A stretch of 64,000 nucleotides of DNA from Patescibacteria group bacterium. Lineage in GTDB: Bacteria > Patescibacteriota > Minisyncoccia > Phycocordibacterales > UBA918. The notes beneath the pieces are model-generated. The model ran no database searches, was not told the origin of the DNA, and saw only the letters and a program-made list of their open reading frames with translations. The DNA lies in assembly GCA_019750255.1 (NCBI GenBank), contig JAIEOU010000006.1, positions 52,142-116,141 of the forward strand, given 5' to 3'. Position 1 is the stretch's first letter; every line of letters begins with the position of its first letter. A program made the position numbers and the translations under genes. Positions 13,050-36,598 of the stretch are shown in pieces.

Positions 13050-13101
13050 GTTACACAACCACCGCACTCCAAATGGAATGAGGGGCTATTTTAAATTATA
13101 A

Positions 13102-13135
13102 GCGACACGCCTCCCAGAAATGGGAGGCGTGTCGC
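13102..13135. terminator. Intrinsic terminator hairpin (stem gcgacacgcctccca / tgggaggcgtgtcgc, loop gaaa) flanked by A/T-rich sequence. It lies downstream of the cohesin-like gene and immediately upstream of the giant gene start.
   Basis: Perfect 15-bp inverted repeat seen directly in the sequence. The minus-strand side is followed by ttataatttaaaat. Confidence 0.6.
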
Positions 13136-13161
13136 TAAATTCTGGGGATGAATCCAGAAAC

Positions 13162-14706
13162 TTACTTTAGTATTGATTTTACATCACTGATTTCCTTTTC
13201 AATCAATGTTTCAGACACTTCAAGCGCCTGGGTCAATCCTTCAACTGCAATGCGCTCGTTCTTGGAGAGTCGCTTCTGCTTGGTGATCATATTTACCTGA
13301 TCATAGATTTCGTCTCGTAGCGCTGAGAATATTTTCTCCATTTGATCTTGAATCTCTCGCGTCTCCTTGCGCAATTTCTCTTCCTTAATACGCAGTTGCT
13401 TACGTTCATACCACATATATATGAGCTGTAATATCACGACAACAATGAGGAAGAAAATGAGGAGATTGACCGCGGTGAAGTAATCCCAAATCGACGTCAC
13501 GTCCTCTACTTCAAGCGGTTTGACCCAGCCTGACTGAATGAGTACCGCCTTGCTTCCCTCTCGCTTGTTGCCCGCCTTGTCGAATGCATCAATCTTTACA
13601 GTGTAGGTCCCATCCTCTAATTCCTTAAGTAGGTATCCGAGCTTAGCTTCATCTGGAGTAACTCTAATTGGTTCCTTGTCAGCAATCGTCATCTCGTAGT
13701 AATCAATCCCTGAAGTGACGTCCATCGCTTCAAAGGTAAGAAGTGGGAAGTCGGTCGGTAGCGTGCCGGGTACTACCAGTATTTCAAACGGTTCAGGTGG
13801 CGTGGTATCGATGCGTAGCTTTCGGTTAAGGATTCCGCCCCACCCAACTTGGTTCTGATACTGAATGCTAAAATATTGTTCACCATCGACAATCAGACCC
13901 TTATTAATGACAAACTCATCAATTGGTGGGTCATAAATCGCGTTTTGGTTCTTTGAGGGATCGTTATCTGACGAGGTGGCAATTTCAATCGCTACAGCAG
14001 TCACATCAAACGGCAATGTCCAAGTAAACACGCCGTCAGTTGATTTGTACCAAATCTCAGGATCGAGGAAGATTTGTGAACCGACTTCAGGAGCCCGTGG
14101 GGGATCTCCAAAGATAATCGCCTCTTCGCTTTCCTCCTCTTCTGCTTCTGGCTCTGCTGTTGGTGTGGCGGGAGGAGTTGCAGGCGGTGGCGGAGTGGCG
14201 GTAGCACTAATGGTAAAACTGCCCTGCGTCGAGTTTTCAAATACGTCCGTCCCCCGACCATCAGCCGCCAGCACCGAAGCACTAGAGAACGTAACAGCTG
14301 CGGTACCAGCCGCAACAGTTCGGAACGTAACGTTAATTAAATTTGATGTAGCAGTAAAGGGTGTGGGGCTACCACCACCAAAAGTAACAGTACCGGCAGT
14401 GTTTGAAAACGCAGGCTCAGTTGTCCATAAAGAAAATACCGAACCGTCTTTACTGACACTCACCACACTGAGAAGAGTGGGGTCGAACTTCAGTGCGGCT
14501 TCAACCGCGTTTACATTTGCACCACCGGGCGCCACACGAATGGTGGCGGTGAACGTCTGGCCAATGTTGTACGTACCCGTCGACGGTGCGATCACAACGT
14601 CAGCAGCAAAAACCGGGTTAACCCACACATGCGCTGCAGCGATGAATAAAAAAGCAACAAACAGATTTATGCAGACCTTACGTGATAAAGAAAAGAACGA
14701 AGTCAT
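13162..14706 (-). CDS. Cohesin-like domain membrane protein. It has a signal peptide, an N-terminal cohesin/Ig-like beta-sandwich, a Pro/Thr then Glu-rich linker, a second extracellular domain, a single TM helix and a cytoplasmic coiled-coil tail.
   Basis: The 514-aa ORF includes 'IGQTFTATIRVAPGGANVNAVEAALKFDPTLLSVVSVS', which matches the cohesin-domain pattern. The linker is 'TPPPPATPPATPTAEPEAEEEESEE'. The TM helix is 'AVNLLIFFLIVVVILQLIYMWY', followed by a K/E-rich heptad tail. Confidence 0.7.
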   Translation of the reverse strand: MTSFFSLSRKVCINLFVAFLFIAAAHVWVNPVFAADVVIAPSTGTYNIGQTFTATIRVAPGGANVNAVEAALKFDPTLLSVVSVSKDGSVFSLWTTEPAFSNTAGTVTFGGGSPTPFTATSNLINVTFRTVAAGTAAVTFSSASVLAADGRGTDVFENSTQGSFTISATATPPPPATPPATPTAEPEAEEEESEEAIIFGDPPRAPEVGSQIFLDPEIWYKSTDGVFTWTLPFDVTAVAIEIATSSDNDPSKNQNAIYDPPIDEFVINKGLIVDGEQYFSIQYQNQVGWGGILNRKLRIDTTPPEPFEILVVPGTLPTDFPLLTFEAMDVTSGIDYYEMTIADKEPIRVTPDEAKLGYLLKELEDGTYTVKIDAFDKAGNKREGSKAVLIQSGWVKPLEVEDVTSIWDYFTAVNLLIFFLIVVVILQLIYMWYERKQLRIKEEKLRKETREIQDQMEKIFSALRDEIYDQVNMITKQKRLSKNERIAVEGLTQALEVSETLIEKEISDVKSILK

Positions 14707-14708
14707 AT

Positions 14709-15176
14709 TTATACAGGCCGCGAAGCACGCTTCTCTTGAGTAACTCGCAATCGCACCCTTTCTTTCTCCTCCGGCTTCAGTAGTGGGAGCGTTAATATTA
14801 AAACACCATTTTTTATCTTTGCTTCCGCTTTCTCAATGTCTACACTCTCCGGCAATATAATACGTCGGTAGAAATCTCCCCAAATACATTCCTCAGCCAC
14901 AAACGCACCCTGCACTTTCTTCTTCGGAAAAACTAAATATTCAGGGCGCACTCTCCTGCCCTCAATAAGAATGATATCTGCGTCGCCTTCAATCGAAACA
15001 TGCACGTCATTCATATCAGCGCCAGCTGATTGGGCATACACGACAATCAAACGGTCACTTTGAAATACATCAACATCAAGTTGGGCAACTTTATCAACTG
15101 CAGTTTCTTCCGCTGCTGATTGTAGCGCGTCGCCGGATTTAACACCTCTACCTTTGAGTCGCTGCAGAAAGGACAT
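14709..15176 (-). CDS. Small heat-shock protein, Hsp20/alpha-crystallin family
   Basis: 155-aa ORF with an alpha-crystallin domain and the signature 'GVLILTLPLLKPEE'. Its stop is 2 nt from the start of the cohesin-like gene. Confidence 0.8.
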   Translation of the reverse strand: MSFLQRLKGRGVKSGDALQSAAEETAVDKVAQLDVDVFQSDRLIVVYAQSAGADMNDVHVSIEGDADIILIEGRRVRPEYLVFPKKKVQGAFVAEECIWGDFYRRIILPESVDIEKAEAKIKNGVLILTLPLLKPEEKERVRLRVTQEKRASRPV

Positions 15177-15555: not shown

Positions 15556-17466
15556 TCAACCGGTCCAATTGAATAGCAGAATCGAGAAGTCGGTCAAGTT
15601 TACCCGCGTATCGCCGTTTATATCAGCCGGAGGACTGGAATCACCACCACTGGTAGACCACCAGAAGAGGAGAATAGAGAAGTCGGTCAAGTTAACCCGA
15701 CCGTCAGTATTCAAATCCGCGTTCATGCGACGGTCCGCTGTTTCCCCCACTCCGTAGAGTGTGTAGTTAGAAAAATTGGTTGCCAAGGTACCCTCTCCAA
15801 CCGCCCGCGCTCGAACTTTATACGTTCCGTTTGAAAATCCGGCCGTATCGAGTGGAATTGACCAAGCCCCGCCAGCGTCACTTGTTGCGGTTAGGACCTT
15901 ACGCGACGCGACACTTCCCTGCTTTTCGTTTTCAATGGTAATAGTGGCGTTAGGCATTGCATAACCCGACAACGTAGCCGCCGTTCCCGGCGTAACTGGA
16001 TCGGGGGAAACCTTAATCGATGGGGCGACATTAATATTCGAAAGCGCTGTGGTGCGGGCACCACTTACGGTGAACGACGTACTGAACGTACTGGACTTAA
16101 CTTGAGCCGCATCGGTAGCAAACACACCGAATGTGTACACTCCCCGCGCAATCTGGTCTATCGTGGCCGAGTACGAGCCTGTATTTCCAGCGGTTACCTG
16201 AGCAGCTTGTTTACCATCAACCAACACAGTGACCCTCGCTCGCGGAAACGCAAAACCAGTGATTTCTACCCGACCGTCCCCACTGCGGAAAGGTCCGTCG
16301 GTAGACTCAAAGCCTCCTCCAGCCGTGCTCCCGGAACCAGGTCCACGTCCACCCCCACCCCCACCCCCGGCCCCGCCCGTTCCCGACGACCCACCAAGTT
16401 CCGGAGCCTCGCCGTTGGACTCGCCGGTGGTTCCTCCAGCTCCACCTCCATCTCCCGTTCCATTATTACCTTGACCGCTACCATCACCAGAAACCGCACC
16501 GGCAGTGTTAGCCTGACCAGTCGGAACGTCGTTTACGGAAAACTGAATCAAGAAGTCATCGGTGTTAAAGTTCCCTTCATCATCCATACAGCGCACGTAG
16601 TAACGCTGCACCGAATTTGGAATGATTGTAACAATGGTGGAATGGAAAATGAGTCCCGTATTTGCGAACGTTGACGGCATGGCACCATAGGCGACGCTCG
16701 AGGAAGCGGAAAACTTACAAATCGCTAACTCATCAGTTTCTAGACTTATTTCTACACTAAGGGTTGTCCCACCCACCGTACTCGTTGGAGTGGGATTAAA
16801 ACGAAATGGAGGGATGGTTTCAGTTGTATCAACAGGACCGACCCCCACGCGTTCAACGATGGCAATTGAAAAACCGGCGTTGGCAACTTCTGTACCGTCA
16901 TAAATCCGAACATCCACCACGTGCGTTCCCGCCACACTACTATTCACCACTCCTGGTGTATCTTCAGGGGTCGTGGACGTGCCGGTAGTGGTACTAAATG
17001 ATTCACTAAAAACCGAAGACATTGACGTGTGGTCACCAATCTTTAACTCTAGCCTACTCCCGGCTGAAAGACCGACTGTTGGTTCCAGTGTGTACCGGAT
17101 CATTCCCGGTGTTCCCGGAAAAATTTCAACCTGGTCAACACCTGGTGAAGCGACCACGTCCGCCGTGCGCAGGGTGCCATCCACAATCAGCTCGACGTTG
17201 CGCTCATTAAATGAGCTACTGGCAATCACCTCAAACCCGGGCGGCGGTACGACCTCGATGTAGCCACCGGGAGATACGGCCGTATCGAGACGAAAGGCAA
17301 GAGTATGGTTAGCCAGGAAGGTTGGGGCGGAGGTTGAAATCGTATCTTTGTATTCGTTGATATTGCGCGCCTGTAATAATCCGGGAAATAGCGAAAAGGC
17401 CCAGATAAAAGCTAAAAAACTACAGGCAAATAATCCCGCCCATAATTTAGCGACTGTACTTCTCAT
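15556..17466 (-). CDS. Dockerin-containing secreted surface protein (signal peptide, beta-sandwich domains, Gly-rich linker, C-terminal type-I dockerin with two Ca-binding repeats)
   Basis: The C-terminus carries 'ADLNTDGRVNLTDFSILLFWW' and 'ADINGDTRVNLTDFSILLFNWTG', which is the dockerin duplicated DxNxDGxVNxxD repeat. The Gly-rich linker is 'GGGAGGTTGESNGEAPELGGSSGTGGAGGGGGGG'. The start is set at the internal Met 'MRSTVAKLWAGLFACSFLAFIWAFSL' (signal peptide, rc ATG at 17464-17466). The ORF track's upstream Met at 17565 adds 33 non-signal residues. Confidence 0.75.
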   Translation of the reverse strand: MRSTVAKLWAGLFACSFLAFIWAFSLFPGLLQARNINEYKDTISTSAPTFLANHTLAFRLDTAVSPGGYIEVVPPPGFEVIASSSFNERNVELIVDGTLRTADVVASPGVDQVEIFPGTPGMIRYTLEPTVGLSAGSRLELKIGDHTSMSSVFSESFSTTTGTSTTPEDTPGVVNSSVAGTHVVDVRIYDGTEVANAGFSIAIVERVGVGPVDTTETIPPFRFNPTPTSTVGGTTLSVEISLETDELAICKFSASSSVAYGAMPSTFANTGLIFHSTIVTIIPNSVQRYYVRCMDDEGNFNTDDFLIQFSVNDVPTGQANTAGAVSGDGSGQGNNGTGDGGGAGGTTGESNGEAPELGGSSGTGGAGGGGGGGRGPGSGSTAGGGFESTDGPFRSGDGRVEITGFAFPRARVTVLVDGKQAAQVTAGNTGSYSATIDQIARGVYTFGVFATDAAQVKSSTFSTSFTVSGARTTALSNINVAPSIKVSPDPVTPGTAATLSGYAMPNATITIENEKQGSVASRKVLTATSDAGGAWSIPLDTAGFSNGTYKVRARAVGEGTLATNFSNYTLYGVGETADRRMNADLNTDGRVNLTDFSILLFWWSTSGGDSSPPADINGDTRVNLTDFSILLFNWTG

Positions 17467-17675
17467 ATATATGTATTGTACCGTGCTACAAAACGAAACC
17501 ACCCCGTCATGCACAGTGAGCAGAAGCAAGGAGGGCGAAGGACGACTATTGTTTTGCTTATGCAAGCGCTTCAGCAGATTCTACTTTTAAGAGGAGAATA
17601 TGCTGGTAGCGACTTGCCTAGTAAAGTGAGTTATGTGTGACAATAGCAACACATCGGCCGATGCACTAGAAACTC

Positions 17676-19469
17676 CTACACAAATCCCCCAGACTGATGC
17701 TCCCACAACCGCGCGTACACGCCCCCGTAAGCAACAAGCGCATCGTGCGATCCGTCCTCAACAATTTTGCCCTCTTCGAGCACAATAATCCGGTCCATTT
17801 CGCGTAAGGTAGAGAGCCGGTGCGCTATCGCGATTACCGTTTTTCCGGCCATAAGCACATGCAGCGCCTTCTGAATAGCCACCTCACTTTCACTATCAAG
17901 TGCTGAAGTAGCCTCATCAAGAACGAGAATTGGCGCATCCTTAAGCATGGCACGGGCAATTGCCACCCGCTGCTTCTGTCCTCCCGAAAGCTTTATGCCG
18001 CGCTCGCCCACAAGCGTGTCGTATTTTTGCTCAAGCTTCTCGATAAACTCATGGGCATAGGCCTTGCGAGCCACCGCTTCTACCTCAGCCTGCGTTGCGT
18101 GTGGCATTCCATAAAGAATATTTTCGCGAATAGTACGGTGAAATAGGAGGGGTTCTTGGGGAACTAAAGAAATCGTCTCACGCAGCGAGTCCTGGGTTAC
18201 TGTAGCGATGTCCTGACCATCAATACTAATACTACCTTTAGGAATGTCATGTTGGCGGAGCAAAAGCGATACAAAAGTACTCTTTCCAGCACCCGAAGAT
18301 CCCACCAATCCCACTCGCTGCCCAGCCGGGATAGTCAGGGAGAAATCATTAAATACCTGGTGTGACTGGAAACTAAACGATACATGTTGCCACGACACTT
18401 CCCCACCATTGGATACGAGATTCTTAGCATTGGGTCGGTCGGTAATGTCATACGGTACATAGATGTCATCGAGCCCTTCCTGCATTTCTCCATACGAACG
18501 AGCCACGCGGTTGAGCATTTGGCCAATAAACATGAGGGAGCCTGTTAACTGCGCATATAAGGCCAAGGCCAACACCACCTCGCCAGGAGACACCGCCCCC
18601 TCTTGCCACCGCACGACGAGAAGCCATATCATTAGCGTAGCAAAGGCAAACAGAACGATATTATTGACTAAAAACGTCCACTCGGTGAAAAACCAACTAC
18701 GTTTTTGCGCATTCATCTGCAATTCACTCAAATCAAAAAGTCCATTGCGTTCGTTGACTGCCTTGGTGTATTGACGCACTGCCGAAATGTTAGTAATCGT
18801 ATCAATCAGTCGCGCCTGAAATCTGCTACTGATATCGGCCGAGACAGTGGAAAGCTTTGATTTATGCTTACTAAATGGAATATTAAGGAGAACGAGACAA
18901 ACAATGAGAATAACAAATATAAGCGCCGCGAGCGGGTCCACTGTCGCAATCAGAGCCACCGTTACGATGTAGGTAACGAGGGTATCGAGCAGGTTCCAAA
19001 GCAGGTCCGGAATTGTACTATCAACCGCACCGGTAACATTACGAATCTTATTGCCCACAGCTCCCGCAAATCGACCACTGTAATACGTGTGCCCATGAGA
19101 TAACACGTGCTCAGTAACGGTGTCACGAGCTCGCTTGGTGGCATTATTCGTCAGTATGGCACCCATAAAGCCACTCCCGCGGTAGAGTAACTGGACAAAA
19201 AAGATAACCACAGGGAACGAGAGGCCCCACCACATAGCCGCTGTTGCGTCCCCCTGCTCTACCGCATCAATAATCAACTTAAATAAGTAGTTTGACCCCT
19301 GACTTATACCAGCGGCAAAAATAACAAGAACGACCGCCGCAAAAAGGTATATATACGAAGATTTAACCGAATGCCAGAAAAAGGCATATGGGTTACGGAG
19401 TTGGTGGTGCTCTTCATTTGTATTAAGCGTCTTTTTCATGTGTATCGTGTTATGACGGTATACGCTCAC
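17676..19469 (-). CDS. ABC transporter, fused permease/ATP-binding subunit (MsbA-like type I exporter)
   Basis: 597-aa ORF with six predicted N-terminal TM helices. It has Walker A 'GSSGAGKST', the ABC signature 'LSGGQKQRVAIARAM' and Walker B 'ILVLDEATSALD'. A GTG start is preceded by an AAGGTGA RBS, with an alternative ATG at 19439. Confidence 0.9.
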   Translation of the reverse strand: MSVYRHNTIHMKKTLNTNEEHHQLRNPYAFFWHSVKSSYIYLFAAVVLVIFAAGISQGSNYLFKLIIDAVEQGDATAAMWWGLSFPVVIFFVQLLYRGSGFMGAILTNNATKRARDTVTEHVLSHGHTYYSGRFAGAVGNKIRNVTGAVDSTIPDLLWNLLDTLVTYIVTVALIATVDPLAALIFVILIVCLVLLNIPFSKHKSKLSTVSADISSRFQARLIDTITNISAVRQYTKAVNERNGLFDLSELQMNAQKRSWFFTEWTFLVNNIVLFAFATLMIWLLVVRWQEGAVSPGEVVLALALYAQLTGSLMFIGQMLNRVARSYGEMQEGLDDIYVPYDITDRPNAKNLVSNGGEVSWQHVSFSFQSHQVFNDFSLTIPAGQRVGLVGSSGAGKSTFVSLLLRQHDIPKGSISIDGQDIATVTQDSLRETISLVPQEPLLFHRTIRENILYGMPHATQAEVEAVARKAYAHEFIEKLEQKYDTLVGERGIKLSGGQKQRVAIARAMLKDAPILVLDEATSALDSESEVAIQKALHVLMAGKTVIAIAHRLSTLREMDRIIVLEEGKIVEDGSHDALVAYGGVYARLWEHQSGGFV

Positions 19470-19481
19470 TCATCTTTCACC

Positions 19482-20306
19482 TTACCGTACACAGCGAAAT
19501 CCAATCGCCTCCCCAGTAAACTCTGGTGGAGTATGGGCATGAACAGCATGCACACCAGCGTCTGCTCGACTTCCGTAAAATCCGCCCCGAATCATCCCAT
19601 AATTTCCTTGCGGTTCAGACCAAAAATAGGCAGTCCCGTATACATTTCCGGCACTCTCGTCACTCGTCATTATGGCCACTCCGCTGACATCAGCTTGCGC
19701 CACATACCCCGATGGCGGGAGTGGCCGATCACGAAACTGCCCCGCCACCACATCATCTTCTACCCACTCCCAGACGTTACCAACCGCATCATACACTCCC
19801 GCTGCCGAACGACAATCTGACGCCTCACCCGTCTTCCCGACCGCACCGGTTGCCGTACGACACGCACTCTCTTTGGTATCAAGCGCAAGCGTGTACCATT
19901 CAGCAGCGGTTGGTAACCGCTTGCCGGCTCGGGCGCACAGACGTTGTGCATCACTGCGCGCTACCGAACGCCACGGAACCGCTCCGGGTACACTAGCGAT
20001 CCCACATGCAGCCGCTTCGATATTGCTACTAGTATCAAGTGATCGTGAGGGTTCCGGATGTGGACAGTCACTAAGGGCAGAGGCTTCATATTGATCCGCA
20101 CACACAAATGTCCTTCCGGTTGCGACCTCAACCATCCCGTCGGGACAGACCCCATCATTTGTACTACCAATAAGCTGGGCAAGCATGGTTGACTGTGATC
20201 CGCGCCACGTGTCTGAAGCATCGATACCAAGCGCCGTAATAACGAGCGCACCCATGATAACCCCAATTATTCTTAGTTGTTTCATAACTAGAGAGACAGT
20301 GCGCAC
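19482..20306 (-). CDS. Secreted/membrane-anchored FGE-sulfatase (SUMF1/formylglycine-generating-enzyme) fold protein, paralogue 1
   Basis: The sequence carries 'GKRLPTAAEWYTLA', 'AVGNVWEWVEDD', 'MIRGGFYGSRADAG' and 'IGFRCVR', which are hallmark FGE-sulfatase domain motifs. It has an N-terminal signal/anchor. An alternative start Met8 at 20285 would remove the overlap with the upstream paralogue. Confidence 0.8.
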   Translation of the reverse strand: MRTVSLVMKQLRIIGVIMGALVITALGIDASDTWRGSQSTMLAQLIGSTNDGVCPDGMVEVATGRTFVCADQYEASALSDCPHPEPSRSLDTSSNIEAAACGIASVPGAVPWRSVARSDAQRLCARAGKRLPTAAEWYTLALDTKESACRTATGAVGKTGEASDCRSAAGVYDAVGNVWEWVEDDVVAGQFRDRPLPPSGYVAQADVSGVAIMTSDESAGNVYGTAYFWSEPQGNYGMIRGGFYGSRADAGVHAVHAHTPPEFTGEAIGFRCVR

Positions 20307-21112
20307 CGGAAACCTACCGCAGCACTCGCGAATTCAGGAGCTACCGCAGCGTGGAGGGTATACACACCAGCATCATCCCGACTGCCATGGAAACCGCCGC
20401 GCATGAGCGCAAACGTCCCTACCGAATCAGCCCAAAGATAGTCATTGTTGTAGACAGCATCACCAGTGGACGCAGTAGCCGTAGGCACTCCTTCTGGAGA
20501 CACCGCCGTTACAAAACCTTCGGGCGGTAGCGCAGTCCCCTCGAATGCTCCCACTCTGGCTTCTCCAGCTACCCACTCCCAAACATTTCCGACCATATCA
20601 TACACAGCCATACCAGATAGGCATTCGGTAGAAGCTCCGGTCTTTGTAAGTCCACCGTTTACGTTACACGAAGCGCTACTATCGGGTGTACCGCGGGCCG
20701 CCAAATACCATTCGTGAGAGGTAGGAAGCCGTTTACCGGCCCTAGCACACAGCTGCTCGGCCTGCACCCGCGCAACCTGGACCCACGGCAACTGGAGCGG
20801 TCTAGGCACGGGGGAACACTCTCCATCATTGGCATTCGCAGCGGTTTCCACACTACTTGCCGGTACAGCAAATGGGCATTCTCTACTTGGACTCACTTCA
20901 TAGGCGTCGATACAAAACCTCATTCGATTCGGATTCTCAATTTCGACCATCCCGGTTGGACACGTCGCAGTGGTAACATCACGAGCCAAGAGACCAAGTG
21001 CCGATTGTGACCCACGCAAAAGATCGGTGGCGTCGATACTTACGCTCGTGAGCGCAATAATTCCCACCGTTACTAAAAAGAAGCGCACCGAGCGCGAGAC
21101 ATACCTCATCAC
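20288..21112 (-). CDS. FGE-sulfatase (SUMF1) fold protein, paralogue 2
   Basis: The sequence carries 'GKRLPTSHEWYLAARG', 'MVGNVWEWVAGE', 'LMRGGFHGSRDDAG' and 'VGFRCALSL', with an N-terminal anchor 'FFLVTVGIIALTSVSI'. Confidence 0.8.
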   Translation of the reverse strand: MMRYVSRSVRFFLVTVGIIALTSVSIDATDLLRGSQSALGLLARDVTTATCPTGMVEIENPNRMRFCIDAYEVSPSRECPFAVPASSVETAANANDGECSPVPRPLQLPWVQVARVQAEQLCARAGKRLPTSHEWYLAARGTPDSSASCNVNGGLTKTGASTECLSGMAVYDMVGNVWEWVAGEARVGAFEGTALPPEGFVTAVSPEGVPTATASTGDAVYNNDYLWADSVGTFALMRGGFHGSRDDAGVYTLHAAVAPEFASAAVGFRCALSL

Positions 21113-21150
21113 ACTTCATAGTATAGCGCGACCTTAGTCCTGAACGACCA

Positions 21151-22002
21151 TTACTGCACATCACGCACACACCTAAATCCCACACCAGCAGCAGCAAAAT
21201 CAAGCGCTACCGACATGTTTTGAGCAAACACACCCCCGTCACTGCCGCTTGTGTAAAATCCTCCACGCAACATTCCGCGGACCCCTTCATGCTGGACCCA
21301 GGCATAGTCATCACCAAACGCCGGGACGGGCTGATTGCTGGTCTTTAAGACCACACCACCATCATCGACCAGTTCAACATATCCTGACATCGGAACGTGG
21401 CGCCCTTCAATCATTCCGTCACTCACGGTATCACCCATCCATTCCCATACATTTCCGACAAGATCATGGACCCCGAGTGGCGAAACGCAGTTCGCACTAC
21501 CCGTCAAGGCTGGGCTTGTGGCATCCAGAACACAGGATTCTGTGTCAGCCTGACCGACGGCAACGCGGTACCATTCCTGTGCCGTTGGTAGCCGCTTCCC
21601 CGCTCGAGCGCACAGCTGGGTTGCTTCGGTATAACTGACAAACCGCCACGGTTCTTGCCCGGGCTGACTAACCGGTACACAGGCCGGTGTTTCCACATTG
21701 CTCACAGTGGCACTATCGCCCGTTGCGCTACGGTACGGACAGGTGTGTGCAGGACTGGCTTCATAGCTATCAATACACAGCGCATACGCGCCAAATCGCA
21801 ACAGCACCTCGTGCTCGTTACAAGGCCCACTACTGGTCACTGCTGAACCCATGAGTTTGCCGGAAATGCCGTTAGCCATATCAGATGCCTGAATACCCAC
21901 CGTCGATAGCACGAACGCTCCAAGACCGATGAGTAAACCCTTATGCCAATTCCGTCTTTTGGCGCGTGGTGTCATAGAGCTCACGTGACCTGACGAAATC
22001 AA
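21151..22002 (-). CDS. FGE-sulfatase (SUMF1) fold protein, paralogue 3
   Basis: The sequence carries 'GKRLPTAQEWYRVAVG', 'LVGNVWEWMGDT', 'MLRGGFYTSGSDGG' and 'VGFRCVRDVQ'. An N-terminal signal follows 'MTPRAKRRNWHKGLLIGLGAFVLS', so the start is possibly at the internal Met (21975). Confidence 0.8.
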   Translation of the reverse strand: MISSGHVSSMTPRAKRRNWHKGLLIGLGAFVLSTVGIQASDMANGISGKLMGSAVTSSGPCNEHEVLLRFGAYALCIDSYEASPAHTCPYRSATGDSATVSNVETPACVPVSQPGQEPWRFVSYTEATQLCARAGKRLPTAQEWYRVAVGQADTESCVLDATSPALTGSANCVSPLGVHDLVGNVWEWMGDTVSDGMIEGRHVPMSGYVELVDDGGVVLKTSNQPVPAFGDDYAWVQHEGVRGMLRGGFYTSGSDGGVFAQNMSVALDFAAAGVGFRCVRDVQ

Positions 22003-22378
22003 GCGCGTAGTTTAATACAATCAGTACCAACATAATGAACAGAATACCCGCCAGAACAAACGTTGAGGTCGGTGAGGTTCCAGCACTTCCAAGCAACCCA
22101 ACATCTAAATCACGCAGCATCGCATCCTTCTTTCCCACCTCTTGCTCCAACTCAGCAATACGAGTAGTGAGCGTATTAACACCATTTTCTGAAACACCGA
22201 CATAAACACCCACAGCATTAGCTAGATATAACCCTGTCTGATCAGCCAATCGCGCGGTAGCACTGGTGAAGAGCCCGCTCTCAAAGATCAAAACGGTCGC
22301 CATAACAACACAGCTTACCCTAAGAATCTTATGATAGGCCGAATGTTCAAGGGAGTAATTCATAACAAAACAATACAT
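21941..22378 (-). CDS. Small membrane protein with a coiled-coil segment and a C-terminal TM helix (hypothetical)
   Basis: 145-aa ORF. 'TRIAELEQEVGKKDAMLRDL' is coiled-coil-like and 'FVLAGILFIMLVLIVLNYAL' is a TM helix. The start is uncertain (internal Mets at ~22363 and ~22303). The annotated ORF overlaps the FGE paralogue 3 start. Confidence 0.5.
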   Translation of the reverse strand: MYCFVMNYSLEHSAYHKILRVSCVVMATVLIFESGLFTSATARLADQTGLYLANAVGVYVGVSENGVNTLTTRIAELEQEVGKKDAMLRDLDVGLLGSAGTSPTSTFVLAGILFIMLVLIVLNYALDFVRSRELYDTTRQKTELA

Positions 22379-22381
22379 CCA

Positions 22382-23479
22382 CTACGCAAAGATAAGCAAG
22401 AGAAGGATGAGGAAAAGTACGGTTGTTGCCAACATGGCAATGAAAGTCATGAGCAGCACCGGACTACCCCGGCGACGGACCGTGCGCACCATCCGACGCT
22501 CTCCTGCCCCGGACATAATTGCCATTGTGCGGCGTACATAGAGTTTTACCCCAACGTAAATCGCCAAAAGAATCAGCGCGAGGGTAATTGCTGCTGGACC
22601 AATTATATTCATTGGCAATACCCAGAACGACACCGTACTCGAGATAGTACTCTTGCTCCCGGCCTCTCCATAAATCGGACTGACCCGAGCAAGGTAGCGA
22701 CCAAAGCCGATCCCATCATCCGACCATTTAAAAGAATACTCGCGCACGACACCCGGAAACACACTAGCTTGAGAATCATTAAATACAAGCGTTGCCACAT
22801 TTTCGCCGAACATGTTGGTAATCTCAAGCGGACCCGTTGGTCTCACGAGAACATTACCTAAGTTTTCAATCCGTAAACTAAAATCTACATTGGTTGATCC
22901 GTAAAAATACTGCCCTGTCGAAAATTGTCGAATCTCAGCTTTTTCGTTAGCATCACCGGCTACTCGGATACTAACAATGTTTGCCACCTCATAACCCACA
23001 GCAGCACCGGTTGTGCGCAGGCGCGGCGGCTCAACACTAACGAACACTGCCCCAAAGTGACTTCCCGGAGAGGCAGTATCAGGGACCGTCAGAGTGAACG
23101 AAAGCGGAGCCTCGGTACCGGGAGCAACTACCAACTCCTCAGCATCAAGCTGTACCCATGAACTTAACTCAAACCCGGTTGGCTCGACTCCCTCTTCTGC
23201 ATACACTGGTGAGTTATCATTCTTAACACCAACAATGTCGCGAACGTATAAATAATATTTCTGCTCTGTGTCACTTAAATTAGCGACCGATACTGTGTAG
23301 CGCTTAACCTCACCCGGAGTCGCACCCTCTTCAATGATGGCAGGGCTTATCCCTATTCCTGCTCCAAGATTCGCCTGCGCTCGTACGGTTGATGCTGATA
23401 ATCCTAATAAAACACACGCGAGCACACCGACCAAACGGGCCATAAAGGGCAACGAAAACTGCATAATTGTACGTATCAC
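22382..23479 (-). CDS. Cell-surface protein with a signal peptide, two beta-sandwich domains, a C-terminal TM anchor and a short basic cytoplasmic tail (DUF916/DUF3324-like architecture)
   Basis: 365-aa ORF. The N-terminus 'MARLVGVLACVLLGLSASTVRAQA' is a signal peptide. The C-terminus 'AAITLALILLAIYVGVKLYVRRT' is a TM helix plus basic tail. The architecture matches the CscA-type partners of WxL proteins. The family assignment is tentative. Confidence 0.6.
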   Translation of the reverse strand: MIRTIMQFSLPFMARLVGVLACVLLGLSASTVRAQANLGAGIGISPAIIEEGATPGEVKRYTVSVANLSDTEQKYYLYVRDIVGVKNDNSPVYAEEGVEPTGFELSSWVQLDAEELVVAPGTEAPLSFTLTVPDTASPGSHFGAVFVSVEPPRLRTTGAAVGYEVANIVSIRVAGDANEKAEIRQFSTGQYFYGSTNVDFSLRIENLGNVLVRPTGPLEITNMFGENVATLVFNDSQASVFPGVVREYSFKWSDDGIGFGRYLARVSPIYGEAGSKSTISSTVSFWVLPMNIIGPAAITLALILLAIYVGVKLYVRRTMAIMSGAGERRMVRTVRRRGSPVLLMTFIAMLATTVLFLILLLLIFA

Positions 23480-23649
23480 TATACCACCATAGCCTGCTAC
23501 GGCTTAAAATTTTATTAACAGTATCTTGTCTCCACATCACGACGGTGCTGAACAATAATTACCACAACTAACCGAACGGTAAAAACAACAAAACCCGCCG
23601 AAGCGGGTTTTGTTGAATCCTCGTAACCAGGTAGTTACATTGATGAACT

Positions 23650-24729
23650 TTAGAACGTTGGCGTTGCGATGTAGGTAAGAGTCGTGTTGTAGTCATCTCC
23701 AGCTTCCTGAAGTGGACTGATTTGAATCTGGTACCCTACTTCTGCCTGACCATAGTCCTGCGTTGTACCGTCTGATGGTCCGGTGTGAGCAAAAATTGCC
23801 CGTGGAGTGGTACTAGCCGCGACCCATCTATTGCCCCCGCTGTTGGTGAATTCACCACCATTGAGATCACTGTCATTTGAGGTAAGACCCCAGTGACCAT
23901 AGGTGTTCTCGTTGAGCAAAGTATTAGCTGGTGCTACCCACGCCGTTGGAGAGTTTGTGTACGCTCCGTTGATAAACCCGTCAATGTCAGCTCCGGTAGA
24001 TGATTCAAGATTACTATCCTGTTCTACCGTGACCACAAATCCGTTACGTGCATTTGTCTGAACCGTGAGCTGCTGTGCCAATGTTTCAATCTGTCCCGCT
24101 GTTACGATTCCAAACGGAACCGCTGTTGGACTAGTTGAACCAGTGGTCGATGTAGCATTGATTGCTGTCGAAGTAGCAAGACCGATGACGCGGAACTCAA
24201 ATGAGGTCTGCACTTCAGCGGTGACTTCAACAGTATCGACAATCGCTACACGTGTACGACCGATGTCAGCTGGGGTGTTAATCACAAACTCATAGGACCC
24301 GACTGCTGGATTCGTTACCTTGGTTGCCGGTATGACCACCCGTACCACTTGTGTTGCAGTTGCTGCTACACCCGTGAACGAAATTGTCTGACCGGTAACA
24401 TTAAACGTTGCTGGTGCGTCTGGAGTTCCGTTAACGGTGACGGTTAGATCACCGATTACCAGTGTTCCTACTCCCGTGAATCCTGCCGGAAAAGTAATTG
24501 AGGTAGTGGCACCGACGAGTAGGTTCGAACTGGTTGGAACTGTAAATCTGATGTCGTGGCCCGAAAGCACTGCCGGCGCTGAGTCAGAAAGTGTATTACT
24601 GACAGAGTTTAGGTTAGCAGCTTCTGCAGTCATCTGATGAAACCCGAAGGTTGCTAAGACTACTGCGAACGCAACGAGCATCGCGACTGCCCGGTACGTA
24701 AAGCCAACGCGAGTTGGAATTACGAACAT
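23650..24729 (-). CDS. Secreted Thr/Ser-rich surface protein, possible WxL-like C-terminal domain
   Basis: The start is set at the internal Met 'MFVIPTRVGFTYRAVAMLVAFAVVLATFGF' (signal peptide, rc ATG 24727-24729, AT-rich upstream). C-terminal motifs 'YGHWGLTSND' and 'TLTYIATPTF' resemble the two WxL-domain motifs. The WxL assignment is tentative. Confidence 0.6.
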   Translation of the reverse strand: MFVIPTRVGFTYRAVAMLVAFAVVLATFGFHQMTAEAANLNSVSNTLSDSAPAVLSGHDIRFTVPTSSNLLVGATTSITFPAGFTGVGTLVIGDLTVTVNGTPDAPATFNVTGQTISFTGVAATATQVVRVVIPATKVTNPAVGSYEFVINTPADIGRTRVAIVDTVEVTAEVQTSFEFRVIGLATSTAINATSTTGSTSPTAVPFGIVTAGQIETLAQQLTVQTNARNGFVVTVEQDSNLESSTGADIDGFINGAYTNSPTAWVAPANTLLNENTYGHWGLTSNDSDLNGGEFTNSGGNRWVAASTTPRAIFAHTGPSDGTTQDYGQAEVGYQIQISPLQEAGDDYNTTLTYIATPTF

Positions 24730-26266
24730 GTTCTTATATTTTTTTATATTTAATAACTTGTACTCTCTCGCCCGTAGTGTTGGAAATACGAACGAACTCT
24801 GAGAGTAGTGGTTGCAGCATATGTGGAGATGTGTACGGTCGGAGTTTTTTGAAAAGCTCAGCCAACTCGTCGGTACACCACTGCAACCTCTACCGATCAT
24901 TGTACTAGAGGAACTATCACTCCGTCTTAAAGGTTGTGTTGATAACCCTATAAACCATCTGTCGTTTACTTTAGAATAGCTTTATTTTAATTGTTTTAAC
25001 TCAACGACTCACCGCCCTCGCCTTTAAAGCCGTATCGTACAAGTGTCTTCTAGTAAAACTTTTTACTGGACACAGGTTGCACCTTAAGACTTCCCTACCG
25101 CGTCGCATACGGATGCGGAAACGTGTCGTCACTCGCTTCCCAGCACTCTTCCCCATGGGCACTTCCTACCCGCACAACTGCAGCACAATCGGCCACATAT
25201 TTTCCGAACGTACCGAAAACTAACTCTAAAGTTATTTCCTTTCACTCCCTAAATATCCCAATTAATTCATCGTATGTTGAGTACCGTTACGTACCCCAAT
25301 CGGCACTATGTCCACTGCGGCCATATCGAACACTTCTTCCCGGTGGTTTCATCCCAACTAAATATAATCTATCGCAGTATCGCAGGCCCATGTGTGCCTC
25401 GTGTCGCGCAGTCCTCGGCAATTTTCAGCACACGTAACGTGCTATACACCTTTATAAATAATCACCCATCCAGCCCGCACTTCGACTGCTCACTCATGCT
25501 CAAAGACCCATTCTAAGCCCACCTAAGTCTTTAATGTTGACATCCAAATATACCAACGGTATGTGTCTCTTGTATTCGCCACCCAGATTGTATTGGACCG
25601 TCCTCCAAGCCCAAACAGAACGATTACTTTCAAAACATAATACACCACCACCAAACGAAATTAATATCTTTTGAATGCGAATATCGACAGCAACCAAGTG
25701 CGAACCCACATCCTAGCTACCCCATGTTTATTTTAAAAACCGTACTGGGAACATCAGGAATATCAGTCGGACCACCATGAGAGCCCAGACTCCCTCTCAC
25801 CTGCTGCAAGGCCTACTGTTCACATTACCCGCGCCACGACAAACAACCCCAGCCCGCGAAACAGGCAGCGACACACCTCGCATGGAGATGTCCTTTAACT
25901 GTTCCATTACCTACCATCTCGAGCGACCCAAACACTACGAAACATGATTAGTAGAACTATTGTGAGCCCATACCTGCTGCCCTTATCATTAAAAATAACC
26001 CCGCAATATTTAAAAAATCCAACTTGGGAAATAATGGAAAGCACGCACCAGCCTTGTCTTTTATCTTGTCTTTTTTAATTGGTTATCAAGGACATAGCTA
26101 TAATTAGCACTGTCCTTTAGTCTCGTGAGGCGTACGACGAAACTCCTCTGAATAGTCGTGATGATAGGCTGCCGTTCTCCCGGTACGTACTTGAATGCCG
26201 ACCGCACGGAACCCCGGAGCTACTGCTATGAACGCATCTCAGGCAGACTGGACCAAATTAGAGACA

Positions 26267-26908
26267 CTACACCACTAGCGTTCCCCCCGGAAGTAGCGAA
26301 GAAAAGGCAATCCCCTTCTCAGCCAGAATTCGCTCCGCAAGGCCATGACTGATAGATAAGCGATCCACCCGTTCGATACCATCATGGACCGGAAAAGCTG
26401 CTGTAGGCGATATCCTAATTGCATAATGTAGCGCGTCGGTCATGCGACACCACGGTCCCCCAACCGGCAGCGCCAATACTCCTACTGGCTTCCCTGGCTC
26501 TGCGTAGCTATCTCCCGGATAGAAGAGTCGCTCGCCTACAAAGTATCCGGTATTCTGTACCTGACCCACATCCTCAAAGATCTCGGCGTGACGGGCATCA
26601 AAGGCTTCAAGTGTCACCCCAGCAACCGTAGCGCTTTCAGTCCCCTCCAGCACCTGCGCTACTATTCCTTCGACTTCCAGCAAACGAGCGACACTCGAAT
26701 TTGAAACCACCACCACCTCGGGAAGACGCGCTATGATGTCTCGAACTGTCGGTACATGAAGATGGTCGGCGTGCTCGTGCGTGATCAAAATAATATCAAA
26801 CTGCTCGGGCAGCTCCACCCCGGCTGTAAACGACCCGGGGTCTGTCACTACCGTTTTGTTTTCAATCTGTATCACCAGGCAGCAGTGGCCGATTTTAGTA
26901 ATAGTCAT
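26267..26908 (-). CDS. Metallo-beta-lactamase fold hydrolase
   Basis: 213-aa ORF with the 'HEHADH' HxHxDH zinc-binding motif and 'GHCCLVI' near the N-terminus. Confidence 0.8.
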   Translation of the reverse strand: MTITKIGHCCLVIQIENKTVVTDPGSFTAGVELPEQFDIILITHEHADHLHVPTVRDIIARLPEVVVVSNSSVARLLEVEGIVAQVLEGTESATVAGVTLEAFDARHAEIFEDVGQVQNTGYFVGERLFYPGDSYAEPGKPVGVLALPVGGPWCRMTDALHYAIRISPTAAFPVHDGIERVDRLSISHGLAERILAEKGIAFSSLLPGGTLVV

Positions 26909-26924
26909 ATTGGTTTAGTATAGC

Positions 26925-26956
26925 AAAAACACCCCCGGATAACCGGGGGTGTTTTT
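26925..26956. terminator. Bidirectional intrinsic terminator (aaaaacacccccgg-ataa-ccgggggtgttttt)
   Basis: Perfect GC-rich 9-bp stem with an A-tract on one side and a T-tract on the other, seen directly in the sequence. Confidence 0.7.
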
Positions 26957-27190
26957 CATTCTTTATTTCTACTTAGCAAGTCGCTACTATTACTTTTTAC
27001 GCTTTTAAAGCTTGAAAGAAATGAAGTGTTTACATAAGAATAAATACCGAGTGACGTAGTCACGAGTATATTTTTCTTATTTGAAAACTTCACTCGTTTC
27101 GAGCTTAAAAGCGAGATAACGAGTGGTAGTTTTCGGGAAGTAAAACATAGTTAAGCAAAACAATGAGCGTAGCGATTATGTTTTGCGTAT

Positions 27191-27224
27191 GTCAGATTTT
27201 CCTCTACCCTGAGGAAAATCTGAC
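27191..27224. terminator. Terminator hairpin downstream of the GH18 gene (gtcagattttcctc-taccct-gaggaaaatctgac)
   Basis: Perfect 14-bp inverted repeat about 20 nt after the stop at 27246. Confidence 0.55.
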
Positions 27225-27245
27225 CGGCTTTCAGCCTCCTTGTTT

Positions 27246-28499
27246 CTACTTAAACAGTGACCAGATTTTTTGATCTTCCTCGCCATCAATCTTGAAGAAG
27301 GCCACACCGCGCAGGCCGTACTTCTCTGCCATTTCAATCCGCCTTTTTGCGGTCGTAGCATCGCTATAGCTTGCGAATCGCACAGACACCTCTTGTCCCG
27401 ACATCGTGGCGTAGGTGAGAGCCTGGGCCGCTGACTCAAAGCCCTTTGGAGTACCCTTTGGTACCGGGAGCGCCCGCAAGAGTTCATACGGTGAACCCTT
27501 AGGGAAGTACGTAATGACGGCCTCACCTCCTACCGTTCGCCCTTCCTCAATATCATACTCCTTCGCCAGTTCAAGTAATCGGGGATGATTCAGGGCTGCG
27601 ACAGACGTGTAGTCGCGGTACCAGTCCGGGGCTACTGTTACATCCCAGGCCCGGCCGTAGGTAGGGATACCAAGAAGCACTTTCTTTTCATCGAAATCCT
27701 TAAGAGCAAGCTCTACCACCTTTTCTACCCACTCATCATCAGCGACGGGGGCATACGGCACGCCCTGACGCTTTTTATTAAGGGTAAGGTCAGCCCGCTG
27801 CTGGTCGTACGTCATGAGCTCAATCCGGTCGCAGTGACGCGCAATTTCATCGTAGTCGTTGGCGTATTTGAGAGGATTTGGCACCGTTACGAAGAGATCT
27901 TCAGGTGGGGTTCGGGCCTCTATGGCACACGTAACGAGCTTTCGCCCCAGTTTTTTGTTGAGCTCTTCTAAAAATTTCGAAAAGTCATCAATGGTGTCGG
28001 TCTTCTTGCCTTCGTAATCGATGTTTACGCCATCATACTTCCCTTTTTCCACCATACTAACAATGGCTTTGATGTGGGCGTTGCGACTCTTTCTGTTACC
28101 AAGGACGTTATCTATCTGCTCCCCGTCAAACCACATCACTGATGGAATTACCTCGACATCATGTTTATCTGCCAGCTTCATGAAGTCTCGCCACTGCTTC
28201 TCGGACATATTGGCCTTATCAACCAACTTTCCGTCTGGTGTTACCTCAAATGAAAACGGATATACTGTATCGAGCTTCTTTATCTGCTTGGTAGCGCTCT
28301 TTAAACCCATCGTGTCTTGCCACCAGGGTATCCAGCCTGAGACCTCAACATCGCTCGTTGCCGCTCGTGCGGAAGGGGTGCCACCAAGGAGTACCAGCCC
28401 TCCCACCATCACCACCGCCATAGCGCACCCTAAAGTTCGCGCCGTATTTACATGTGTCTGCATAATCATAGAGACGGATATCCCAATCGTTTCTTTCAC
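27246..28499 (-). CDS. Secreted glycoside hydrolase family 18 (chitinase-like) protein
   Basis: 417-aa ORF with a signal peptide and the GH18 catalytic motif '[11 protein letters not shown]' (DxxDxDxE). It also has 'GIPTYGRAW'. Confidence 0.75.
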
Positions 28500-28711
28500 G
28501 TTTATTTATTAAAGGTACCGCACAATTCTGTGTCACCAGTTCCTGATAATTACAGGATCAGCCTCAGGTACCGGTATAGGATATGTCGAATATTCAAACA
28601 CAAACAGTGCTCAACTAGACTTTACCACGCAGCGCCTTACTACCACCCCGTCATACCCGGCATTTAGCATCACGCCAACAGCCTCTATAACTGCCGAGTC
28701 ACCATTCCTTA

Positions 28712-29155
28712 TTATGGTGCTTTAGACTTTGACTTGGCCGTCAACCACGAAGATGACTGTACCTTTCCGCCAAAACCGACATTAAAAATCATTTCAATCC
28801 CCAGCTCCTTACACACCACTGCTTCAGGAATATCTTCCACACCTTTACGATCACCACCATTTGCAAACACGTCGGGTCGAACCAGTGCCAGCGTGCGACA
28901 CACCGACCGGTCAGCATCGTTTGGGCCGTGGTCCGTGAGCACCACCTCATCAACAACCCGGAGCGCCCGCAGTACTTCGACGCGTTCTGCCTCGGGCATA
29001 AATACAAAACCCTTCTTAGTCATCAACCAGTCATCGTTATTTAAAATCACCACCAGACGGTCCCCTAAGGCCTTCGCCTCCTCAAACATTCGAATATGTC
29101 CAATATGGACCGGATCAAAACCTCCTGATACCGCCACAGTGCGTATTGTTGACAT
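28712..29155 (-). CDS. Cytidylyltransferase-like nucleotidyltransferase (HIGH-motif family; TagD/RfaE-domain-II/NMNAT-like)
   Basis: 147-aa ORF with 'VSGGFDPVHIGHIRMF', the (H/T)xGH nucleotidyltransferase signature. Confidence 0.7.
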   Translation of the reverse strand: MSTIRTVAVSGGFDPVHIGHIRMFEEAKALGDRLVVILNNDDWLMTKKGFVFMPEAERVEVLRALRVVDEVVLTDHGPNDADRSVCRTLALVRPDVFANGGDRKGVEDIPEAVVCKELGIEMIFNVGFGGKVQSSSWLTAKSKSKAP

Positions 29156-29198
29156 ACACCTATTTAAACTACCAATCCCTCAAAAAAGATACACGCAC

Positions 29199-30383: not shown

Positions 30384-30434
30384 ATATTACTAAGTGTAGC
30401 ATGCACCGCAGTGGCAAAACCCTGGGGCTGTTTA

Positions 30435-31058
30435 TTAAGAATCCGCGAGCTTCGCGTAGACGATCAGATTATGAGTATACCGCGCCGCGCCTCGGTCATA
30501 CGTACCCGAGCAGGTAATGAGCCGCAGTCCTGGGTAATCAATATCACCATAGACAGCGCGAGTGGGAAACTCGTCCTGATCCACCCGCGTCAGGTCGGTC
30601 ACTACAAATCGAGCGGTGCTGCCATCAGCGCGATCGACAAGCACCTCATCTCCCACTTCGACTTGCCCTAGGGACCAAAATACAGCGGGGCCGGATTTCG
30701 AATCAACATGGCCAAGAATCACGGCGGGACCAAGTTCGCCGGGGGTTGGTCCAAACTTATACCATCCCACCTCGGTAAATGAATCGGGTACTTCTGAAGT
30801 CTTATCGGGATTAAGCCCCAGACCGCCCTCGAACCCCGCGTCGATGCCTACCTCGGGTATCCGCAGCCGTACCGGCTCGGATTCCGCAAGAGCATACCCT
30901 GGCAAGGATGAGGTCGCGACTACGGCAACCTCTGGCAACACCTCCACACGCGATACCGACCACAGATACACCACAGCAGATAGCCCTATGCCTACACCGG
31001 CAACTACGAGTATTCGCCACCCTGATACATCCTTAAAATATCCCGACATACTTGACAC
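30435..31058 (-). CDS. Sortase family transpeptidase (class E/F-like)
   Basis: 207-aa ORF with an N-terminal TM anchor, the His motif 'VILGHVD' and the active-site Cys motif 'LRLITCSGTYD'. The conserved Arg is in 'RYTHNLIVYAKL'. Confidence 0.75.
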   Translation of the reverse strand: MSSMSGYFKDVSGWRILVVAGVGIGLSAVVYLWSVSRVEVLPEVAVVATSSLPGYALAESEPVRLRIPEVGIDAGFEGGLGLNPDKTSEVPDSFTEVGWYKFGPTPGELGPAVILGHVDSKSGPAVFWSLGQVEVGDEVLVDRADGSTARFVVTDLTRVDQDEFPTRAVYGDIDYPGLRLITCSGTYDRGAARYTHNLIVYAKLADS

Positions 31059-31251
31059 TATCTATAGTACGTTGCAAACAACCTAACGGCAATACCTGTA
31101 GTTAAAAAGGGAAACGTTCTTTCAGATGAAGTGGACCAGTTCGTAATGCTTTAGCCGTTGCGACGGCTTCATGGTAACGGGAGCTTATTACTTGCTCTCC
31201 AGTGATTTATGTTTTAATGTTGACCTCGGCTTTCAAACAGAGGAGTTCCTA

Positions 31252-31440: not shown

Positions 31441-31479
31441 CCACAACCCTCCACCCCCCATAAAATCCCCCACACAAAA

Positions 31480-31507: not shown

Positions 31508-31525
31508 CTCTACATTTCCTCGTTC

Positions 31526-36495: not shown

Positions 36496-36598
36496 TACTG
36501 CCCGCCATTACTACTATACGCATCAAGTCTGAAGCCCTCAGTCAACTTTCGCACAATCTCCGGTTTGACTTGATGGCTATTTTTGCCATTATGAAGGA

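Follow-up and report, generated by a model that had tools for sequence, protein, structure and literature searches.

Three consecutive genes on the minus strand of a 64-kb stretch of patescibacterial DNA (assembly GCA_019750255.1, contig JAIEOU010000006.1; the whole stretch of 64,000 nucleotides is referred to here as the window) encode proteins with the fold of the formylglycine-generating enzyme (FGE). We infer, with moderate confidence, that the products of these genes, designated A, B and C, lie outside the cytoplasm, have no catalytic activity and work as lectin-fold binding modules, accessory to a surface-fibre and adhesin apparatus. This reading is favoured because the nearest structural relatives of the trio are the ligand-binding variable proteins of diversity-generating retroelements (DGRs) and the inactive protein pFGE, because no cofactor-binding residues are conserved in the family, and because a DGR-diversified lectin-fold protein shares the same genomic slot in a related locus (L095). 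An earlier note on this DNA had described the trio as an operon feeding into an ATP-binding cassette (ABC) exporter. It had overlooked the wider context, in which the three genes appear to be co-transcribed with a chaperone-like gene of the PapD/WxLIP fold, inside a cluster that also encodes pilin-like, dockerin, cohesin and giant adhesin proteins.

The three FGE-fold genes

The three genes, in the order in which they are read, and the small gene in front of them are as follows.

21941 to 22378, minus strand: small membrane protein of 145 amino acids (aa), with a hydrophobic helix at the N- and the C-terminus; its stop overlaps the start of gene A
21151 to 21975, minus strand: FGE-fold paralogue A, 274 aa; Pfam PF03781, 62.9 bits, E 4.6e-17; tree clade A
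20288 to 21112, minus strand: FGE-fold paralogue B, 274 aa; Pfam PF03781, 59.5 bits, E 5.3e-16; tree clade B
19482 to 20306, minus strand: FGE-fold paralogue C, 274 aa from a GTG codon; Pfam PF03781, 48.0 bits, E 1.7e-12; tree clade C

The gathering score of Pfam for PF03781 (FGE-sulfatase) is 23.3 bits and is passed by A, B and C, and the motifs GKRLPTxxEWY, GNVWEW, RGGF and GFRC are present in all three. The open reading frames (ORFs), the Pfam matches and these motifs together confirm the earlier description of three tandem minus-strand genes, each with an N-terminal hydrophobic helix followed by an FGE-sulfatase domain. As a listed ORF, gene A extends from 21151 to 22002 (283 aa); homologue lengths indicate that it probably starts at the ATG at 21975, in agreement with the 274-aa protein at NCBI. 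By the same measure, the ATG at 20285 is the more likely start of gene C (267 aa).

From the WxLIP-like gene through the small membrane protein, A, B and C to the ABC exporter gene, the spacing ranges from a 35-nt overlap up to 42 nt, and no convincing terminator was found within this run of genes. These tight gaps and the lack of a convincing internal terminator suggest co-transcription of the FGE trio with the chaperone-like gene. Gene C and the ABC gene, with their likelier starts, lie about 42 nt apart and do not overlap. Every related locus keeps the small membrane protein in this place, even where FGE-fold genes are missing.

Catalytic residues and enzyme families

Catalysis by FGE requires a copper-binding pair of cysteines, Cys336 and Cys341 in the human enzyme, located between the RGG and GFRC motifs. 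A check of the paralogues for these residues, proposed in the earlier note, found the pair missing throughout the family: in none of 44 family sequences (0/44) does the segment from WEW to GFRC contain a cysteine, nor does one appear there in the C-terminal tails of five other members. Without the copper-binding pair, which the entire family lacks, A, B and C are considered unable to make formylglycine. Similarly, no DinB domain was found in the family, so that the three proteins are not regarded as enzymes of the EgtB/OvoA type. An invariant histidine was sought across the family alignment, and none was found.

The matches of the trio to NCBIfam models of EgtB, SenA, OvoA and PvdO are weak (15-31 bits against cutoffs of 360-500), and the alignments to the EgtB, OvoA and SenA models, whose cutoffs are 360-420, span only about 75 residues of the shared fold. 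There is no match to the GldK/PorK models in NCBIfam at E <= 0.01. Further, no lipoprotein cysteine occurs in or after the N-terminal helix before residue 52, and PorL, PorM or PorN are not found as neighbours, the adjoining genes being unrelated. Judged by these sequence comparisons, A, B and C are neither FGEs, nor sulfoxide synthases, nor specifically PorK/GldK-like proteins.

No sulfatase domain was detected in the window proteins scanned with Pfam (candidates among ORFs of at least 130 aa), which bears out the earlier statement that the window contains no sulfatase. A substrate for an FGE within the cluster was also sought and rejected: the motif C-x-P-x-R does not occur in the cluster proteins, and a lone S-x-P-x-R is found in the giant protein.

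Predicted fold and topology

For A, an AlphaFold model computed from an alignment of 46 sequences gave a mean predicted local distance difference test (pLDDT) score of 86. The model consists of a helix (residues 9-34), a disordered linker (36-48) and a compact FGE/C-type-lectin domain. Foldseek searches with this model gave as top matches the DGR variable proteins TaqVP (6e-8) and Mtd (up to 3e-7), along with the FGEs of human, T. curvata and S. coelicolor at 5e-7 (human) to 1e-5; pFGE, CalU17 and enzymes of the EgtB/OvoA type were also matched. When the family profile was compared with the PDB, the best match was the catalytically inactive pFGE/SUMF2 (1y4j), with E 1.5e-9. Loss of the FGE fold had been named earlier as an outcome that would overturn the assignment; the fold is retained by Pfam, AlphaFold and Foldseek alike.

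The ectodomain comprises about 225 aa and contains eight cysteine columns that are at least 98% conserved in the family; the eight residues probably form four disulfides, their pairing being deduced from this conservation. Positive charges precede the N-terminal helix in A, B and C. Together, the N-terminal charge and the conserved cysteines point to extracytoplasmic, disulfide-bonded proteins with the N-terminus inside and the C-terminus outside. The hydrophobic helix would be a signal anchor, or may belong to a signal peptide that is cleaved near an invariant A-x-D. After GNVWEW the proteins also have an insertion, about 30 residues long and specific to the family. The earlier view of them as minimal, outward-facing proteins is supported, with the outward topology itself predicted from these features. 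Among the matches listed, the subfamily is almost confined to patescibacterial contigs. The window itself is patescibacterial: the product of gene A matches, at 100% identity, a protein recorded under 'Patescibacteria group bacterium', for which an exact-sequence lookup gave no contig, and relatives are labelled Kaiserbacteria.

Age and copy number

Related loci, labelled here L001 and so on, were gathered by exact-protein lookup and pattern scans, and their ORFs were annotated by search with the window proteins; all counts of presence and absence given here refer to a sample of loci and not to a census. The pairwise identities of the paralogues, which had been proposed as a means of dating the duplication, are 37% for A and B, 39% for A and C, and 43% for B and C. 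Orthologues of A are 50-78% identical to A, well above the identity of A with B or C. In a neighbour-joining tree of 49 family members of related loci, three clades follow gene position, with the first gene of each trio in clade A, the middle one in clade B and the last one in clade C. Because the clades follow gene position and orthologues are closer to one another than paralogues are, the triplication is judged to be old. Single-copy FGE-fold forms branch outside clades A, B and C.

In the 25 loci sampled, the number of FGE-fold copies ranges from 0 to 3. Pairs have arisen by later loss and occur as A+C (L006, L012 and L085-L087), A+B (L004 and one JGI contig) and B+C (L007 and L090). Only about three positions are conserved within one clade yet differ between clades, and these are uninformative on the ligand specificity of A, B and C.

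The variable slot and the ABC exporter

The same gene order recurs in about 20 distinct loci: a pilin-like gene, one to three WxLIP-like genes, the small two-helix membrane protein, one to three FGE-fold genes, a dockerin/Big protein, HSP20, a cohesin protein and a giant protein; with the loci that lack FGE-fold genes counted in, the number of these genes runs from zero to three. What lies between the gene of the small membrane protein and the dockerin gene differs among loci; this variable slot is filled by FGE-fold genes, ABC or EamA transporters or a DGR. In L005, three tandem genes of the EamA/DMT transporter family (12179-14905) are inserted between paralogues B and C. The slot of L095 also holds a toxin-antitoxin pair and a genuine DGR (11755-14961), in which a reverse transcriptase (13738-14961, minus strand) is accompanied by a target gene for a lectin-fold protein of the Lcl_C/DUF1566 type (12241-12957). 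Between the variable repeat at the 3' end of this target (12846-12973) and the template repeat (13583-13710) there are 18 differences, 17 of them at positions that are A in the template.

In the window, the slot contains one further gene.

17676 to 19469, minus strand: MsbA-type ABC half-transporter, 597 aa; Pfam PF00664 ABC_membrane (72.5 bits) and PF00005 ABC_tran (120.2 bits)

The best NCBIfam matches of this protein are MsbA-like; TIGR02204 (MsbA_rel) scores 365 bits, under its cutoff, and no equivalog cutoff was reached. Comparison with relatives of 587-589 aa suggests that the gene probably starts at the ATG at 19439. The earlier note had coupled the trio to this exporter, and co-occurrence of their homologues was indeed seen in other genomes, in four related lineages: the trio together with the ABC gene is found only in the window and L001 (with L002/L003), L165, L166 (with L167) and L169. 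However, the ABC gene accompanies FGE-fold genes in only 5 of 23 FGE-bearing loci, the other 18 being without it. An orthologous ABC gene (58% identity) occupies the same position in L172 (Parcubacteria OLB19), where tblastn detected no FGE-fold gene, and L171 has a complete cluster with neither. All four combinations of presence and absence of FGE and ABC genes thus occur among the 25 distinct related loci, and the proposed coupling is contradicted. Since FGE and ABC genes occupy the variable slot independently, the trio cannot be said to feed into the exporter. The exporter gene is best seen as an accessory in its own right, which in this lineage has come to fill the same slot.

Proposed role and alternative explanations

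According to the proposed role, A, B and C would be tethered on the outer face of the cell membrane as non-catalytic binding modules and would act as optional accessory parts of the surface-fibre and giant-adhesin apparatus. There they might hold fibre or adhesin components, or bind cell-wall or host glycans. That the FGE genes are accessory follows from the complete cluster without them in L171, the ABC gene without them in L172, the variation from zero to three copies, and the A+C, A+B and B+C pairs. Several points weigh against this reading. The orthologues of A, B and C show ordinary conservation at the identities given above, unlike host-recognition proteins, which often evolve fast. The clade-specific positions that might indicate distinct specificities for the three proteins are few. 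The pattern of conserved residues also leaves room for an enzymatic activity that may operate through residues other than cysteine or histidine, and both the disulfide pairing and the topology are inferred.

A catalytic role is the first alternative to be weighed, namely that A, B and C are enzymes that do not need the FGE cysteine pair and that modify fibre subunits, the adhesin or glycans outside the membrane. We consider this unlikely, even though most characterised FGE-fold proteins are enzymes and PvdO, an FGE-fold protein now named dihydropyoverdine dehydrogenase, offers a comparison. The window is rich in glycan genes (GT2 and GH18), the pilin-like protein is rich in Ser and Thr, and weak NCBIfam matches do point to EgtB, SenA, OvoA and PvdO. 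Those matches, however, fall far short of their cutoffs (15-31 bits against 360-500) and reflect shared fold motifs only; the family has no DinB domain, no invariant histidine and only eight conserved, probably structural, cysteines; the best sequence match in the PDB is an inactive protein; and the FGE genes are dispensable in otherwise identical clusters. This last feature bears equally on a rather unlikely structural alternative, in which the three proteins would be obligatory subunits of a hetero-oligomeric base or ring, like PorK/GldK, that assembles the fibre or the adhesin. PorK/GldK provide a precedent for the FGE fold as a structural ring, and the trio is membrane-tethered, co-transcribed with a chaperone-like gene and made up of three old paralogues stably kept in the fixed order A, B, C. 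Clusters with no copy, one, two (A+C, A+B or B+C) or three copies nevertheless imply no fixed stoichiometry and an apparatus that works without them. In addition, GldK/PorK models do not match, a lipoprotein cysteine is missing, and these bacteria have no outer membrane.

The trio and the ABC exporter might instead form one system, in which the FGE-fold proteins process, receive or chaperone an exported cargo. In the window and in L001, L165, L166 and L169, the trio and the exporter gene stand side by side in one orientation, separated by no more than 42 nt, and transporters recur nearby, as shown by the three EamA-type genes between B and C in L005. This explanation is nonetheless improbable in view of the 18 of 23 FGE-bearing loci without an ABC gene, of L172 with the exporter alone and of L171 with neither; the exporter also has no peptidase domain or dedicated partner that would indicate a protein substrate. 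Finally, A, B and C could be DGR-diversified variable proteins, the commonest role of the fold in Patescibacteria, as the top structural matches TaqVP and Mtd and the real DGR in the slot of L095 might suggest. This is exceedingly improbable. No reverse transcriptase was found among the window ORFs scanned with Pfam, genomes agree in a conserved C-terminal segment, where RGGFYGS..D.G and GFRC do not vary, and the L095 DGR targets the Lcl_C-type protein rather than the FGE-like genes. In a search for repeats across the 64-kb window, no part of 19482-22002 was paired with another sequence, and this rules out a DGR role for the trio in the window.

Beyond the binding-module role, a more specific and speculative proposal can be made, to which we give little weight. 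The FGE-fold proteins might be membrane-proximal, lectin-like base or tether subunits of an undescribed patescibacterial surface organelle for host attachment, in which a donor-strand fibre of the Pam/WxL type would be combined with a giant adhesin (5,700-7,700 aa) that is held by a cohesin-dockerin pair. If this were true, surface machines would have recruited the FGE fold twice and independently, the first case being PorK/GldK.

Neighbouring genes of the cluster

Downstream of the slot, the conserved part of the cluster continues with the following genes.

15556 to 17565, minus strand: secreted dockerin protein; Pfam Big_6, Dockerin_1 and Big_13; dockerin at the C-terminus; likely start at 17463
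14709 to 15176, minus strand: HSP20 small heat-shock protein; Pfam HSP20, E 5e-11
13162 to 14706, minus strand: cohesin-domain protein; Pfam Cohesin, E 6.5e-7; membrane helix and C-terminal coiled-coil tail
3 to 13085, minus strand: giant surface protein; stop-free frame of at least 4,361 aa, running off the left end of the window; Pfam Laminin_G_3, Ig_Rha78A_N and DUF2341

The dockerin protein is kept directly downstream of the FGE slot. Its N-terminal domain resembles the N-terminus of the pilin-like protein, with the shared pattern T(L/I)S(D/T)SAP...H..F and, in L171, a tblastn identity of 33% over 113 aa. From its sequence, the dockerin protein may be a second fibre subunit. In most related loci that cover the region, an HSP20 gene, which is odd for a cluster of surface proteins, separates the dockerin gene from the cohesin gene. 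Orthologues of the giant protein are 5,708-7,696 aa long and are always last in the conserved cluster.

Upstream of the small membrane protein lie a chaperone-like gene and a pilin-like gene.

22382 to 23464, minus strand: DUF916/WxLIP-like protein; two Ig-like domains and C-terminal membrane helices; Pfam WxLIP_PGBD, E 4e-4
23586 to 23615, minus strand: terminator-like hairpin directly 3' of the pilin-like gene; 13-bp stem with 7 G-C pairs, followed by TTTTT
23650 to 24729, minus strand: pilin-like major subunit, 359 aa; signal peptide ending in ...AEA|ANL; C-terminus ...ATPTF

The WxLIP-like protein is named 'DUF916 domain-containing protein' at NCBI, and precomputed PF06030 matches exist for many of its orthologues. 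Its AlphaFold model (pLDDT 83.5) shows two beta-sandwich domains and C-terminal helices. Foldseek matched the model to CfaA (2.9e-11), the E. faecium WxLIP 9i25_C (1.3e-10) and also FimC, PapD, CsuC and Caf1M, within a range of 3e-11 to 1e-7; RbmA (4kkp) was among the matches only as a generic Ig fold. On the strength of the predicted structure, the protein is assigned the PapD-type chaperone fold, in a membrane-anchored form.

The pilin-like gene is the most conserved of the locus, with homologues 60-87% identical across many Patescibacteria, and both the mature N-terminus and the C-terminus are invariant in the family. As noted above for the enzyme alternative, the protein is Ser/Thr-rich. 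The NCBIfam model NF058581 (CPR_Pam_pilin_C) is weakly matched by 31 of 37 pilin-like orthologues, with a best E of 7.6e-8 and all under the cutoff; the window protein reaches 24.4 bits, where the cutoff is 55, with an alignment confined to its last 39 residues. Pfam detected no domain in the pilin-like protein and hence no WxL domain. By eye, parts of the protein (GHWGL and the C-terminal ...YIATPTF) have a WxL-like look, which is a lead only.

The 1.5 kb upstream of the pilin-like gene (24730-26267) contains no ORF of more than 126 codons. Over its first 325 nt it shares 83% identity with the L165 intergenic region, a similarity that may reflect a conserved leader or promoter. The other 1.2 kb gave no match and replaces a Y-family polymerase gene of the relatives, of which tblastn found no remnant. 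A search of 24730-26267 with Rfam returned nothing.

Significance and other features of the window

A large part of bacterial diversity belongs to the Patescibacteria, which are apparently host-attached, and little is known of the molecules by which they attach. The FGE-fold proteins are now placed in a conserved locus that is absent from the searchable literature: no description was found there of a locus with pilin-like, WxLIP-like, FGE, dockerin, cohesin and giant protein genes. The earlier statement that the trio is not a described set agrees with this, as no paper on it appears in the same literature. The labels 'formylglycine-generating enzyme family protein' and 'nonheme iron enzyme' are misleading for these proteins, in which the residues for either role are missing. 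The variable slot is a sensible place to seek host-specificity factors. The value of the analysis lies mainly in the locus, and less in the pairing of FGE and ABC genes.

Several other features of the window were noted. The region 26267-39728 is dense in envelope genes, which include a sortase, a CAP-domain protein, two GH18 proteins, two DUF11 proteins and two GT2 proteins (chitin-synthase-like). Each of the two DUF11 genes adjoins a GT2 gene, and the weak repeats that the pair has in common lie at 31767-31940 and 37038-37211, a spacing of 5,271 nt. Two identical tandem copies of 114 nt (42102-42329) lie where a fragmentary polysaccharide-biosynthesis ORF overlaps a minus-strand ORF; they may be a recent duplication or an assembly artefact. 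On the minus strand at 54492-61346, a protein of 2,284 aa contains many Kelch-like repeats of about 132-138 nt and a C-terminal Peptidase_S74 domain (endosialidase/tail-fibre chaperone). Just upstream of it, an ORF of at least 860 aa (61359-63941, minus strand) includes an internal repeat of 300 nt with 97% identity (62029-62328 and 62626-62925).

Comparison with known systems

Like the trio, pFGE/SUMF2 has the FGE-sulfatase fold without the two catalytic cysteines, and the structural disulfide that corresponds to QLC...GFRC is retained. It is, however, a soluble protein of the vertebrate endoplasmic reticulum, where its partners are FGE and sulfatases, whereas the proteins of the trio are membrane-tethered, with four cysteines more and the insertion of some 30 residues that follows GNVWEW, and neither an FGE nor a sulfatase is encoded nearby. 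The DGR variable proteins TaqVP (5vf4) and Mtd (1yu3) share the fold, which in them forms the scaffold for ligand binding at the surface of cells or phages; Patescibacteria commonly have proteins of this kind. The trio differs from them in that the window has no template and variable repeats or reverse transcriptase, and the corresponding segment is not hypervariable but conserved. In the type IX secretion system, PorK/GldK likewise have an FGE fold without the FGE active-site residues and form a membrane-associated part of a surface machine. In contrast to these, the trio has no model match, lipobox, outer membrane or PorL/M/N, and it is dispensable and varies in copy number.

Among fibre systems, the Pam pilus of the Candidate Phyla Radiation, in which PamC and PamD are chaperones of the PapD/FimC fold that keep a C-terminal membrane helix, PamT is the tip pilin and PamR an RbmA-like anchor, is one point of comparison (bioRxiv 10.64898/2026.03.03.709456). 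The locus shares with it a chaperone of the PapD/FimC fold with a C-terminal membrane helix; the similarity of the pilin C-terminus is consistent but weak, at 24 bits well short of the cutoff of 55. [quoted passage not shown] The same text makes no mention of an FGE-fold or ABC gene, and cohesin, dockerin, HSP20 and an adhesin of 5,700-7,700 aa are absent from the components of the pam operon and neighbourhood that it describes (bioRxiv 10.64898/2026.03.03.709456).

The WxL/WxLIP clusters (PDB 9i25 and 9i1y) resemble the locus in their DUF916 gene, whose product has two Ig-like domains and a C-terminal membrane helix, and in the match of the window protein to the E. faecium WxLIP at about 1e-10. 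In Firmicutes, a DUF916-DUF3324 protein with a C-terminal membrane helix constitutes WxLIP, and the abstract of that source lists no FGE-fold gene as a usual member of WxL clusters (PMC10599100). The locus differs from these clusters in that its partner subunit has no Pfam WxL domain. Thus, both the non-catalytic FGE fold (pFGE, PorK/GldK and the DGR variable proteins) and membrane-anchored PapD-fold chaperones with pilin-like partners (Pam and WxL) are already known. What is new is the eight-cysteine, membrane-tethered FGE-fold subfamily and its place in a locus for a fibre, a cohesin-dockerin pair and a giant adhesin.

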